Source of the DNA: Escherichia coli | GTDB taxonomy: Bacteria > Pseudomonadota > Gammaproteobacteria > Enterobacterales > Enterobacteriaceae | Length of the DNA stretch: 30,752 bases | Assembly (NCBI RefSeq): GCF_003334315.1 | Contig: NZ_QOWR01000055.1 | Direction: 5' to 3' (one strand) | The notes under the pieces: generated by a model | Seen by the model: only the letters and a program-made list of their open reading frames with translations | What the model was told of the DNA's origin: nothing | Databases searched by the model: none | Program-made: the position numbers and the translations under genes | Shown: positions 13,488-22,116 of the stretch, piece after piece | Numbering within the stretch: position 1 is the stretch's first letter | Layout: each line of letters begins with the position of its first letter

Positions 13488-13891
13488 GCCAGCTCGTCTA
13501 CTTCTCCAGCAGCTCCGAAAACACGCAGCGTTTTATCGAACGTTTAGGTCTGCCCGCGGTGCGCATCCCGCTCAATGAGCGGGAACGGATTCAGGTAGAC
13601 GAGCCTTACATCCTGATCGTGCCCTCTTACGGCGGCGGTACGGCTGGCGCGGTGCCACGACAGGTAATTCGCTTTTTAAACGACGAGCACAACCGGGCGT
13701 TGCTTCGCGGCGTTATTGCTTCTGGTAATCGCAACTTTGGTGAGGCGTATGGCCGCGCCGGAGATGTGATTGCCCGGAAATGCGGCGTGCCGTGGCTGTA
13801 CCGTTTTGAACTCATGGGTACGCAAAGCGATATCGAAAACGTTCGTAAAGGAGTAACCGAATTTTGGCAACGACAACCGCAGAATGCCTGA
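13484..13891 (+). CDS. nrdI: Flavodoxin-like protein NrdI
   Basis: 135-aa ORF; start ATG overlaps nrdH stop (ATGA at 13484..13487). Confidence 0.93.
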
Positions 13892-16008: not shown

Positions 16009-16977
<969 letters not shown>

Positions 16978-17235
16978 GGGTGTTATTTTCAAAAATATCA
17001 CTACCCGCAGCAGGGAAATAATTCCCGCCAAATAGCTTTTTATCACGCAAATAATTTGTGGTGATCTACACTGATACTCTGTTGCATTATTCGCCTGAAA
17101 CCACAATATTCAGGCGTTTTTTCGCTATCTTTGACAAAAAATATCAACTTTCTCGATTTGCTCTCAGCCCTTATATCACGGGAAATTCCGGCGATTTGCT
17201 CGCATCAATATTCATGCCACATTTGCCATCAGGGG

Positions 17236-17263
17236 TTGCCTCAGATTCTCAGTATGTTAGGGT
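17236..17263 (+). promoter_or_regulatory. proU sigma-70 promoter (-35 TTGCCT, 16-bp spacer, -10 TAGGGT)
   Basis: TTGCCT at 17236..17241 and TAGGGT at 17258..17263 read directly; matches the osmoregulated proU promoter architecture known from E. coli/Salmonella. Confidence 0.6.
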
Positions 17264-17330
17264 AGAAAAAAGTGACTATTTCCATTGGGTAATATATCGA
17301 CATAGACAAATAAAGGAATCTTTCTATTGC

Positions 17331-18533
17331 ATGGCAATTAAATTAGAAATTAAAAATCTTTATAAAATATTTGGCGAGCATCCACAGCGAGCGTTCAAAT
17401 ATATCGAACAAGGACTTTCAAAAGAACAAATTCTGGAAAAAACTGGGCTATCGCTTGGCGTAAAAGACGCCAGTCTGGCCATTGAAGAAGGCGAGATATT
17501 TGTCATCATGGGATTATCCGGCTCGGGTAAATCCACAATGGTACGCCTTCTCAATCGCCTGATTGAACCCACCCGCGGGCAAGTGCTGATTGATGGTGTG
17601 GATATTGCCAAAATATCCGACGCCGAACTCCGTGAGGTGCGCAGAAAAAAGATTGCGATGGTCTTCCAGTCCTTTGCCTTAATGCCGCATATGACCGTGC
17701 TGGACAATACTGCGTTCGGTATGGAATTGGCCGGAATTAATGCCGAAGAACGCCGGGAAAAAGCCCTTGATGCACTGCGTCAGGTCGGGCTGGAAAATTA
17801 TGCCCACAGCTACCCGGATGAACTCTCTGGCGGGATGCGTCAACGTGTGGGATTAGCCCGCGCGTTAGCGATTAATCCGGATATATTATTAATGGACGAA
17901 GCCTTCTCGGCGCTCGATCCATTAATTCGCACCGAGATGCAGGATGAGCTGGTAAAATTACAGGCGAAACATCAGCGCACCATTGTCTTTATTTCCCACG
18001 ATCTTGATGAAGCCATGCGTATTGGCGACCGAATTGCCATTATGCAAAATGGTGAAGTGGTACAGGTCGGCACACCGGATGAAATTCTCAATAATCCGGC
18101 GAATGATTATGTCCGTACCTTCTTCCGTGGCGTTGATATTAGTCAGGTATTCAGTGCGAAAGATATTGCCCGCCGGACACCGAATGGCTTAATTCGTAAA
18201 ACCCCTGGCTTCGGCCCACGTTCGGCACTGAAATTATTGCAGGATGAAGATCGCGAATATGGCTACGTTATCGAACGCGGTAATAAGTTTGTCGGCGCAG
18301 TCTCCATCGATTCGCTTAAAACCGCGTTAACGCAGCAGCAAGGTCTTGATGCGGCGCTGATTGATGCGCCGTTAGCAGTCGATGCACAAACGCCTCTTAG
18401 CGAGTTGCTCTCTCATGTCGGACAGGCACCCTGTGCGGTGCCCGTGGTCGACGAGGACCAACAGTATGTCGGCATCATTTCGAAAGGAATGCTGCTGCGC
18501 GCTTTAGATCGTGAGGGGGTAAATAATGGCTGA
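17331..18533 (+). CDS. proV: Glycine betaine/proline ABC transporter ATP-binding subunit ProV
   Basis: ORF 17058..18533; internal ATG at 17331 ([19 protein letters not shown]...) gives the 400-aa protein. Walker [13 protein letters not shown] signature LSGGMRQR, C-terminal CBS domains. Confidence 0.95.
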
Positions 18534-19590: not shown

Positions 19591-19647
19591 CTCTGCACTT
19601 GCCCGGTGACGCCGGGCATTATCACCCTGCCAAAAAAAGGAATAACA

Positions 19648-20640
19648 ATGCGACATAGCGTACTTTTTGCGACAGCGTTTGCCACGCTTATCTCTACACA
19701 AACTTTTGCTGCCGATCTGCCGGGCAAAGGCATTACTGTTAATCCAGTTCAGAGCACCATCACTGAAGAAACCTTCCAGACGCTGCTGGTCAGTCGTGCG
19801 CTGGAGAAATTAGGTTATACCGTCAACAAACCCAGCGAAGTAGATTACAACGTTGGCTACACCTCGCTTGCTTCCGGCGATGCAACCTTCACCGCCGTGA
19901 ACTGGACGCCACTGCATGACAACATGTACGAAGCTGCCGGTGGCGATAAGAAATTTTATCGTGAAGGGGTATTTGTTAACGGCGCGGCACAGGGTTACCT
20001 GATCGATAAGAAAACCGCCGACCAGTACAAAATCACCAACATCGCACAACTGAAAGATCCGAAGATCGCCAAACTGTTCGATACCAACGGCGACGGAAAA
20101 GCGGATTTAACCGGTTGTAACCCTGGCTGGGGCTGCGAAGGTGCGATCAACCACCAGCTTGCCGCGTATGAACTGACCCATACCGTGACGCATAATCAGG
20201 GGAACTACGCGGCGATGATGGCCGACACCATCAGTCGCTACAAAGAGGGCAAACCGGTGTTTTACTACACCTGGACGCCGTACTGGGTGAGTAATGAGCT
20301 GAAGCCAGGGAAAGATGTGGTCTGGTTGCAGGTGCCGTTCTCCGCACTGCCGGGCGATAAAAACGCCGATACCAAACTGCCGAATGGTGCGAATTATGGC
20401 TTCCCGGTCAGCACCATGCATATCGTTGCCAACAAAGCCTGGGCCGAGAAAAACCCGGCAGCAGCGAAACTGTTTGCCATTATGCAGTTGCCAGTGGCAG
20501 ATATTAACGCCCAGAACGCCATTATGCATGACGGCAAAGCCTCAGAAGGCGATATTCAGGGACACGTTGATGGTTGGATCAAAGCCCACCAGCAGCAGTT
20601 CGATGGCTGGGTGAATGAGGCGCTGGCAGCGCAGAAGTAA
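19648..20640 (+). CDS. proX: Glycine betaine/proline ABC transporter periplasmic binding protein ProX
   Basis: ORF 19606..20640; ATG at 19648 ([21 protein letters not shown]...) gives 330 aa with a signal peptide. Confidence 0.94.
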
Positions 20641-20650
20641 TTTTTATTCG

Positions 20651-20840
20651 GGCGGATAAGGCGTTTTTACCTCATCCGCCGCTCTGTACACAATGCCTGA
20701 TGCGACGCTGGAGCGTCTTATCATGCCTACAAAATACACTCATTCCGTATGGCGGATAAGGCGTTTTCGCCGCATCCGTCGTTCTGTGCACAATGCCTGA
20801 TGCGACGCTGGCGCGTCTTATCATGCCTACAAACCACATC
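20651..20840. repeat. Two tandem about 100-bp BIME/REP units downstream of proX
   Basis: Unit 1 starts at 20651 and unit 2 at 20751 (ggcggataaggcgtttt...gcacaatgcctgatgcgacgctggngcgtcttatcatgcctacaaa), near-identical with a few substitutions; contain REP-like palindromic cores. Confidence 0.7.
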
Positions 20841-20931: not shown

Positions 20932-22116
20932 ATGACTAAACCTAATCATGAGCTTAGCCCGGCGCTGATCGTGCTGATGTCTATCGCCACCGGTCTGGCG
21001 GTAGCCAGTAACTATTACGCCCAGCCATTGCTCGACACCATCGCGCGTAACTTTTCCCTTTCCGCCAGTTCGGCAGGCTTTATTGTTACCGCCGCGCAGT
21101 TGGGCTATGCCGCAGGTCTACTGTTTCTTGTTCCCCTCGGTGATATGTTTGAACGCCGCCGCCTGATTGTCTCGATGACCTTACTGGCGGCATGCGGCAT
21201 GTTGATTACCGCCAGCAGTCAGTCGCTGGCGATGATGATCCTCGGTACGGCATTAACCGGTTTATTCTCAGTCGTGGCACAAATTCTGGTTCCGCTGGCA
21301 GCGACGCTGGCTTCACCGGATAAACGCGGCAAAGTGGTTGGCACTATTATGAGCGGTCTGCTGTTGGGGATCTTGCTGGCACGGACAGTTGCCGGATTGC
21401 TGGCGAATCTCGGCGGCTGGCGCACCGTCTTTTGGGTTGCTTCGGTGTTAATGGCACTGATGGCGCTGGCATTATGGCGTGGTCTGCCACAAATGAAATC
21501 AGAAACCCACCTCAACTACCCACAGTTGTTGGGTTCCGTTTTCAGTATGTTTATCAGCGATAAAATTCTGCGTACCCGCGCGTTGCTGGGCTGCCTGACC
21601 TTTGCCAATTTCAGCATTCTCTGGACCTCAATGGCCTTTTTGCTTGCCGCTCCACCTTTTAACTACAGCGATGGTGTCATTGGTCTGTTTGGACTTGCGG
21701 GAGCTGCCGGAGCGTTGGGCGCTCGTCCGGCGGGCGGTTTTGCCGATAAGGGCAAATCGCACCACACCACAACTTTCGGTCTGCTGCTGCTATTACTTTC
21801 ATGGCTGGCGATCTGGTTTGGTCACACTTCCGTACTGGCGTTGATTATCGGAATCCTGGTGCTGGATCTCACCGTGCAGGGCGTGCATATCACTAACCAG
21901 ACGGTAATTTATCGGATACATCCTGATGCGCGCAATCGCCTGACCGCAGGTTACATGACTAGCTACTTTATTGGCGGTGCCGCCGGTTCGCTAATTTCAG
22001 CCTCAGCCTGGCAACATGGCGGTTGGGCTGGCGTTTGTCTGGCTGGCGCGACGATTGCCCTGGTTAACTTACTGGTCTGGTGGCGAGGTTTTCATCGTCA
22101 GGAAGCCGCAAATTAA
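20932..22116 (+). CDS. ygaY: MFS-family transporter YgaY, apparently intact (394 aa)
   Basis: Uninterrupted 394-aa ORF with about 12 hydrophobic segments, located between proX and ygaZ. Confidence 0.8.
   Translation: MTKPNHELSPALIVLMSIATGLAVASNYYAQPLLDTIARNFSLSASSAGFIVTAAQLGYAAGLLFLVPLGDMFERRRLIVSMTLLAACGMLITASSQSLAMMILGTALTGLFSVVAQILVPLAATLASPDKRGKVVGTIMSGLLLGILLARTVAGLLANLGGWRTVFWVASVLMALMALALWRGLPQMKSETHLNYPQLLGSVFSMFISDKILRTRALLGCLTFANFSILWTSMAFLLAAPPFNYSDGVIGLFGLAGAAGALGARPAGGFADKGKSHHTTTFGLLLLLLSWLAIWFGHTSVLALIIGILVLDLTVQGVHITNQTVIYRIHPDARNRLTAGYMTSYFIGGAAGSLISASAWQHGGWAGVCLAGATIALVNLLVWWRGFHRQEAAN

Follow-up and report, generated by a model that had tools for sequence, protein, structure and literature searches.

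The 273 bases from 17058 to 17330 are almost certainly the non-coding intergenic control region of proVWX (proU), and ProV is translated from the ATG at 17331; this conclusion includes the published model for the silencing of promoter P2 by H-NS. The region was analysed within a 30,752-nucleotide stretch of Escherichia coli DNA (the window). Our analysis provides the sequence identities and coordinates, the absence of a coding signal and the conservation described below; the transcription starts, the binding of H-NS and IHF, and the osmotic mechanism are taken from the literature.

The window covers the nrdEF-proVWX region of E. coli and contains glaH-lhgO-gabDTP-csiR, stpA, nrdHIEF, proVWX, ygaY, ygaZH, emrRAB, luxS, gshA and tRNA-Arg genes. 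Positions 16900-17700 are 100% identical to E. coli HB101. Of 5426 complete E. coli genomes, 5421 contain this stretch, and in these it is always chromosomal with nrdF on one side and proV on the other. In the RefSeq annotation, nrdF ends at window position 16977 and proV starts at 17331 (locus position 1932 + 15399), followed by proW and proX. To place published features in the window, we added 15376 to the coordinates of the map of Rashid et al. 2023 (PMC10656529, Supplementary Data 1A), using the DRE sequence AGGGGTTGCCTCAG as the anchor (map 1855 = window 17231). The DRE sequence of E. coli K-12 proU in that paper is the same as in the window, and every published feature of the K-12 locus (P1, P2, URE, DRE/NRE) lies at the constant offset of +15376. 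In total, there is no substantive difference from K-12 proU, except that this allele happens to keep the frame upstream of proV open. Elsewhere in the window, ygaY is seemingly intact, unlike in the K-12-type HB101 record.

The ORF listing for the window contains an ORF of 491 amino acids at 17058..18533 that starts with GTG (17058-17060) and has an in-frame ATG at 17331-17333. The ORF begins at GTG 17058 only because the lister opens each ORF at the first ATG, GTG or TTG that follows a stop. The initial annotation regarded this as a mis-called proV; while 17058-17330 is indeed non-coding, the upstream start only reflects the mechanical first-start rule, and the public annotation is correct. 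The same annotation placed the conserved N terminus at ATG 17331, and three sources agree on this position. The RefSeq start is at 17331; positions 1-400 of the ProV family NF007480 (NCBIfam) align with ORF residues 92-491 (925 bits, cutoff 444); and residue 1 of Lactococcus OpuAA (PDB 7ahc_D, MAVKIKIEHL) aligns with ORF residue 92, i.e. position 17331. Thus, the proV coding sequence occupies 17331..18533 on the plus strand (map 1955-3157) and encodes the 400-residue ATPase of the ProU glycine betaine/proline ABC transporter. The proV Shine-Dalgarno sequence AAGGA, read from the sequence at 17313..17317 (plus strand), lies inside the published Shine-Dalgarno feature at 17303-17333, and the block AAATAA(C)AGGAA at this site is conserved across the compared loci.

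A longer ProV isoform starting at GTG 17058 and carrying a 91-residue N-terminal extension would account for the frame being open from 17058 in this allele, as it also is in strain a7. The extension matches neither the ProV profile nor the PDB homologue, both of which begin at residue 92. In addition, we saw no Shine-Dalgarno sequence by eye in the bases preceding 17058 (TTATCACGCAAATAATTT), and the extension would span both promoters as well as a terminator-like hairpin. Moreover, in all five divergent E. coli strains compared, the frame is broken or shifted by one-base indels within 17058-17330: a T is inserted in the T-run at window positions 17149-17151 in five of five strains, a C is inserted beside the Shine-Dalgarno sequence in three, and one strain has an additional T in the T-run following the hairpin. 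As a result, three of the five strains have an in-frame open stretch of only six codons without a start codon upstream of the proV ATG, and the other two have 67 codons from an ATG with the upstream part in another frame. Likewise, 96 of 115 Enterobacterales loci lack an upstream in-frame start codon, and the median in-frame open stretch is six codons, i.e. the extension is missing in other genera. For a coding extension, homologues should cover it and its frame and start should be conserved; we found neither, and we consider the longer isoform vanishingly improbable. In total, the 91-codon stretch at 17058..17330 (plus strand) is non-coding DNA that is open by chance in this allele. A longest-ORF rule thus adds 91 codons too many to proV and 14 to proX; in the case of proV, the extension runs into one of the best-mapped regulatory regions of E. 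coli. The significance of this part of the analysis is mostly annotation hygiene.

To compare the control region across Enterobacterales, we scanned one genome per species for a degenerate form of the first 16 ProV codons. The scan pattern contains neither the promoter nor either of the H-NS sites described below, and fixes the first 47 coding bases of every comparison locus; it yielded 120 Enterobacterales loci. An alignment (A2) contained 37 sequences, i.e. the window and 36 loci from about 30 genera.

The initial annotation assigned the osmotically induced proU promoter to TTGCCT-N16-TAGGGT at 17236..17263. Both hexamers and the 16-nt spacer (CAGATTCTCAGTATGT) are present at these positions, and the -35 and -10 elements are base-for-base identical to those of the published σ70-dependent promoter P2; the identification in the initial annotation drew on the literature and is accurate, as are all coordinates given there. 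On the plus strand, the -35 hexamer TTGCCT is at 17236..17241 (map 1860-1865), and the -10 hexamer TAGGGT is at 17258-17263 (map 1882-1887). Reading from the sequence, we interpret the TG at 17255-17256, one base before TAGGGT, as part of a putative extended -10 element (17255..17263). The P2 transcription start on the published map falls at 17270..17271 on the plus strand and leaves a 60-nt leader; this agrees with 17331 - 60 = 17271 and with the report that P2 and P1 are located 60 and 250 bp upstream of the ORF (PMC10656529). Altogether, the -35, the -10, the transcription start and the proV coding sequence coincide with the published map at +15376.

The initial annotation also described this promoter as clear and readable in the sequence. 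Its identity stands, resting on the published map and on conservation, but the hexamers are not clear by themselves: compared with TTGACA/TATAAT they match at 4 + 3 = 7 of 12 positions, and sites matching at least 7 of 12 positions occur 23 times on the plus strand within the 273 bases, against about 10.6 per 273 bases across the window. A simple σ70 consensus scan of 16800-17800 reported no promoter, as P2 fails the scan's 4-of-6 rule. Thus, the hexamer pair alone is not above chance. By contrast, 109 of the 115 Enterobacterales loci, representing 34 of 36 genera, contain the motif TTG[CT]C[ATC]-N13-TG-N-TA[GC]GGT at a median position of -96 from the proV ATG, whereas 23,000 shuffled upstream regions gave no match; accordingly, P2 is above chance because it is conserved. 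Among the 109 matching loci, the -10 is TAGGGT in 94 and TACGGT in 15. In A2, most of the intergenic DNA cannot be aligned, but invariant columns mark the -35 (GGGTTG.C), the -10 (T.TG.TA.GGT), the Shine-Dalgarno sequence and the start codon; none of the 37 genera-level sequences departs from GGGTTG at 17233-17238. The motif is also kept in Serratia, Pectobacterium, Lonsdalea and Brenneria, in which the gene upstream is not nrdF. In total, the hexamers with their spacing and transcription start, the downstream proV-proW-proX genes and purifying selection on the promoter elements in relatives were all found at this locus.

We also considered that TTGCCT/TAGGGT is a chance match and that the working promoter lies elsewhere in the interval, e.g. 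at TTGACA 17131-17136, which is a perfect -35. The match at only 7 of 12 positions and the many sites that match equally well are compatible with this. However, the published transcription start and hexamers coincide exactly with TTGCCT/TAGGGT, and across 34 genera there is hardly any variation in the pair, in its 16-bp spacing or in the TG, while TTGACA 17131 lacks an acceptable -10 (the best matches 3 of 6 positions) and is not conserved as such. We therefore regard a promoter elsewhere as very unlikely and P2 as the σ70 promoter of proU. The P2 -10 contains three GC pairs that impede melting, and P2 transcription is induced by osmotic upshift or K-glutamate (PMC10656529). As TAGGGT is almost invariant, we argue that the weak -10 is selected for, which is consistent with the published model of K+-dependent melting (PMC10656529).

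On the published map, P2 is flanked by the elements through which H-NS silences proU. The DRE, the H-NS nucleation and silencer element, spans -40..+177 of P2 at 17231..17447 (map 1855-2071), and the URE, the upstream regulatory (silencer) element, spans -229..-47 at 17042..17224 (map 1666-1848). An intrinsically curved region at 16912-17191 (map 1536-1815) overlaps the URE, and the looser NRE at 17019-18451 extends about 1100 bp into proV (PMC10656529). The map also places an IHF binding site overlapping P2 at 17238..17295 (map 1862-1919), for which it cites Khodr et al. 2015. In addition, it shows thirteen H-NS DNase I footprints between 17042 and 17451 (PMC10656529): six on the URE side (17042-61, 17073-94, 17097-125, 17131-60, 17167-95 and 17206-27) and seven on the DRE side (17232-49, 17264-85, 17288-300, 17304-25, 17334-79, which is strong, 17390-411 and 17419-51). 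The sequence TCGATATATT corresponds to the high-affinity H-NS sites "proV 1" and "proV 2" with a Kd of about 15 nM (Lang et al. 2007, PMC2094087), and it occurs exactly twice in the 30.7-kb window, both times as an exact match on the minus strand. Site 1 is in the leader at 17291..17300 (+21..+30, centred near +25), and site 2 is in proV codons 23-26 (F-K-Y-I-E) at 17398..17407 (+128..+137). Site 1 is conserved only in the core Enterobacteriaceae; the sequence AATATAT[CT]GA at +67 from the ATG is kept in the Enterobacteriaceae and Erwiniaceae, although this conservation is confounded by protein coding. The DRE starts within 17058-17330, and site 1 lies inside the same interval.

The base composition follows the DRE. 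The GC content of 17231-17447 is 33.6% vs 51.1% for the whole window; it has its minimum of 0.30 at 17250-17399 and is again about 0.5 by 17450. The GC content at third codon positions of proV is 0.1-0.3 over codons 1-40, 0.4-0.7 in the later ten-codon blocks to codon 180 and 0.49 for the gene as a whole; thus, the AT-richness is carried by synonymous codon choice and stops at about codon 40. Averaged over 105 loci, the profile dips likewise, with the AT trough running from about -60 to +110 from the ATG; the first 47 coding bases are fixed by the scan pattern. Thus, the sequence features expected of the DRE and NRE are present, i.e. two identical TCGATATATT sites and an AT-rich tract over the promoter and the 5' end of proV. 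The expectation in the initial annotation that the first about 100 codons of proV harbour the H-NS element holds in that the DRE enters proV; however, its published extent of -40..+177 ends near codon 39, and the AT-content profile from 17331 onward shows an AT-rich start of proV of about 39 codons, not 100. The published map also contains an RNase III processing hairpin in the proV mRNA at codons 49-78 (17476..17565, plus strand; map 2100-2189), which folds at -33.6 kcal/mol with z = -3.75. P1 and the URE, both within the same 273 bases, were missed in the initial annotation.

P1, the second promoter, is σS-dependent and cryptic through Rho-dependent termination (PMC10656529). It occupies 17066..17081 on the plus strand, with a transcription start at 17080/17081 (map 1704/1705). 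From its position and its resemblance to σS -10 elements with a C at -13, we assign CTACACT at 17066-17072 as the putative P1 -10. CTACACT is conserved in Escherichia, Salmonella, Citrobacter, Enterobacter, Kosakonia, Trabulsiella and Yokenella.

Beginning 12 nt past the P1 transcription start and 115 nt past the nrdF stop, the plus strand contains a conserved terminator-like hairpin of CGCCTGAA-N9-TTCAGGCG followed by T7 (17092..17123; stem-loop 17092-17116). It has a GC-rich 8-bp stem and a 9-nt loop followed directly by T7, as in an intrinsic terminator. The hairpin folds at -12.6 kcal/mol (z = -4.1), and none of 200 shuffles was as good. In 21 Enterobacteriaceae sequences, 95% of the cells in the 8-pair stem are paired, against 18-40% in slid controls. 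Cells changed on both sides occur nine times vs 2.8 expected, and none of 500 shuffles reached nine; two stem pairs change on both sides (GC/AU/GU/CG and CG/UA/UG). The published map (PMC10656529) does not annotate this hairpin, and a search of Rfam over 16950-17650 (E <= 1) returned no family. A terminator scan of 16800-17800 did not report it, and we think that this is because the 9-nt loop exceeds the scan's loop limit of 3-8 nt.

This stem-loop could serve as the nrdHIEF terminator, as a structural element at the 5' end of RNAs started at P1, or as both. The possibility that it is simply the intrinsic terminator of the nrdHIEF operon and unrelated to proU is, in our estimate, about evenly balanced. 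Its location on the nrdF strand 115 nt past the nrdF stop with a GC-rich 8-bp stem followed by T7 supports this, as does the observation that it is not recognisable in the three inspected Enterobacteriaceae loci without nrdF upstream; these loci also lack a recognisable P1. On the other hand, only Escherichia, Salmonella and some Citrobacter have the U-tract, which most genera with the covarying stem lack, and most genera have another covarying hairpin directly behind the nrdF stop. Moreover, the stem is invariably found about 20 nt downstream of CTACACT, and the two occur together; therefore, every P1 transcript would begin with the stem.

The URE contains two further conserved features. An A-tract, AAAAAAT at 17136..17142, has a mean conservation of 0.90 among 18 non-Escherichia genera and persists in loci without nrdF upstream. 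A GC-containing block, CTCAGCCCTTATATCA, lies at 17163..17178 (-108..-93 of P2); its part CTCAGCCCTTAT (17163-17174) has a mean conservation of 0.88 among the same 18 genera. Both values are close to the 0.94-1.0 of the promoter blocks. In 67 of 110 loci, including loci without nrdF upstream, the CCCTT core of this block precedes the -35 hexamer by 67-68 nt. It is present in every Enterobacteriaceae locus except Cedecea and in every Erwiniaceae locus except one Tatumella, and it is absent from the Yersiniaceae, Pectobacteriaceae and Morganellaceae among the 110 loci. The block overlaps the H-NS footprint at 17167-17195, but its GC-rich core is unlike the AT-rich degenerate sequence that H-NS prefers. 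The upstream element must sit stereospecifically relative to P2 (PMC10656529), and the fixed spacing of the block fits this published requirement. The block at 17163-17178 is not annotated on the published map (PMC10656529), and a literature search for the string CAGCCCTTATATCA returned no match.

Several candidate functions for the block were rejected. In a comparison by eye with consensus sequences, no IHF, CRP, Fis, NrdR-box or mar-box site fits 17163-17178. A minus-strand extended -10 (TGATATAAG) fits the Enterobacteriaceae, but as a shared function of the block it fails because the Erwiniaceae instead have ...TCACAAGGG. Finally, long-range RNA pairing of CAGCCCUU (17165-17172) with AGGGGUUG (17231-17238) is unsupported because both sides are invariant and the lone variable position (G to T in the Erwiniaceae) is uncompensated.

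For the hairpin, which in E. coli carries the U7 tract, possible roles are intrinsic attenuation or that of a 5' structure in P1 transcripts; the CTCAGCCCTTATATCA block might bind a sequence-specific factor or form a phased structural part of the URE. We consider it rather doubtful that both hold together, i.e. that the hairpin is an attenuator or 5' structure that contributes to the crypticity of P1 and the block is a specific-factor site or phased URE element.

The regulation of proU at this locus would follow the P2/H-NS osmotic mechanism described in PMC10656529. The main transcript would start at 17270/17271 from P2, consisting of TTGCCT, a 16-bp spacer, the TG of an extended -10 and the G-rich TAGGGT, which is hard to melt. 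At low osmolarity, H-NS would nucleate at the two identical high-affinity sites in the leader (17291-17300) and in codons 23-26 (17398-17407), spread across the AT-rich DRE (17231-17447) and bridge to the URE (17042-17224), thereby silencing P2. Upon osmotic upshift, K+ influx would weaken the H-NS bridges and would also directly aid open-complex formation at the weak P2 -10. The second promoter, σS-dependent P1, would start transcription at 17080/17081 and would normally remain cryptic.

The same architecture is found in Salmonella enterica, the proU promoter and downstream silencer of which are the subject of Overdier and Csonka 1992. In S. enterica subsp. arizonae, TTGTCT-N16-TAGGGT lies at -96, the hairpin is at the same position and CAGCCCTTATATCA is present; the H-NS sites are AACATATCGA in the leader at -41 and AATATATTGA in the coding region at +67. 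The Salmonella -35, TTGTCT, differs from that of E. coli by one base and is the majority form; the Salmonella leader H-NS site also differs by one base, and the hairpin stem is longer (12 bp). The intragenic nucleation sites of proU are shared with bgl and other H-NS-silenced loci (Lang et al. 2007, PMC2094087), as are the AT-rich DNA, the tCG(t/a)T(a/t)AATT-like sites and the spreading of H-NS over the promoter into the coding region (PMC2094087). Unlike these loci, proU is a core gene that was not horizontally acquired; moreover, osmolarity relieves its silencing, and the promoter itself responds to K+ (PMC10656529).

The proU control region has been described by Gowrishankar 1989, Dattananda 1991, Lucht 1994, Mellies 1994, Rajkumari 2001 and Bouffartigues 2007; its central facts were thus already known between 1989 and 2007 and were re-mapped in 2023. 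What our comparison contributes is that the G-rich -10, the TG and the 16-bp spacer hardly vary among Enterobacterales, which fits the published idea of the weak -10 as an osmosensor. The hairpin and the GC-containing block are the only loose ends in this otherwise known region. If the hairpin acts on P1 transcripts, it would contribute to the cryptic property of P1 that is currently attributed to Rho, and the two unannotated conserved features, in the P1 leader and in the URE, could sharpen the picture of why P1 is cryptic and how the URE works.

A TG dinucleotide at 17255-17256, one base 5' of the -10 element TAGGGT (17258-17263) of the sigma-70-dependent proU promoter P2, is invariant, and P2 is therefore read as an extended -10 promoter. 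While the spacer of P2 in many genera is a near-perfect palindrome, CTCAGA(T/A)TCTGAG, the E. coli spacer is CTCAGATTCTCAG. Moreover, two elements upstream of P2, i.e. the block CTCAGCCCTTATATCA (17163-17178) and an A-tract (17136-17142), are conserved to nearly the same extent as the promoter itself. The CCCTT core of the block has a fixed spacing of 67-68 nt to the -35 element in nearly all sampled Enterobacteriaceae/Erwiniaceae, and this spacing is also kept at loci in which the upstream gene is not nrdF. Neither the block nor the A-tract had a match in the literature or in Rfam.

The nrdF-proV spacer also contains a hairpin on the + strand at 17092-17123. This hairpin consists of an 8-bp stem, a 9-nt loop and a T7 tract, and judged by these sequence features it looks like an intrinsic terminator. 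It is located 115 nt downstream of the nrdF stop codon, begins 12 nt downstream of the published start of the sigma-S promoter P1, and is without annotation in the published proU map (PMC10656529). Its stem displays covariation across Enterobacteriaceae, and its U-tract is found only in Escherichia, Salmonella and some Citrobacter. A second hairpin immediately follows the nrdF stop codon in most Enterobacteriaceae (corresponding to 16978-17030) and appears to covary, with apparent compensatory changes; its arms are CACCAGGAA...TTCCTGGTG in Klebsiella and GGCAGGGGAAA...TTTCCCCTGCC in Salmonella, and in E. coli only the short remnant GGGAA-ATAA-TTCCC is present.

Among 5426 complete E. coli genomes, the whole stretch used as query (16900-17700) is absent from five. 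Strain a7 carries an IS1B insertion between nrdF and proV (L007 92-789), directly 3' of the nrdF stop codon (equivalent to just after 16977) and 5' of the upstream H-NS silencer element URE, and the proU control region downstream of IS1B is intact. In strain 4588, the match is limited to the first 128 query bases, i.e. to approximately 17027, and the proU control region of this strain is missing or rearranged.

The mechanically called proX ORF (19606-20640, + strand) begins at GTG 19606, while the RefSeq start is equivalent to position 19648, 14 codons downstream, and gives the N terminus MRHSVLF... of a signal peptide. Thus, proX is over-extended by the same artefact of mechanical ORF calling as proV. 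The RefSeq start of nrdE is a TTG codon at 13864 (+ strand).

The H-NS paralogue StpA is implicated in proU insulation, and stpA (10611-11015, - strand) is located ~6 kb upstream. The sRNA MicA (27425-27496, + strand) lies between luxS and gshA. Between proX and ygaY, there are two matches to the REP-derived naRNA4 (RF02564) on the + strand, at 20650-20727 and 20750-20827. Because the ygaY coordinates are offset between the window and the otherwise near-identical HB101, the naRNA4 copy number in this interval is suggested to differ between the two. ygaY itself (20932-22116, + strand), encoding an MFS transporter of 394 aa, is intact in the window, whereas in HB101 it is annotated as a frameshifted pseudogene. 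The downstream H-NS silencer element (DRE) of proU was reported to bridge via H-NS with ygaY (PMC10656529).
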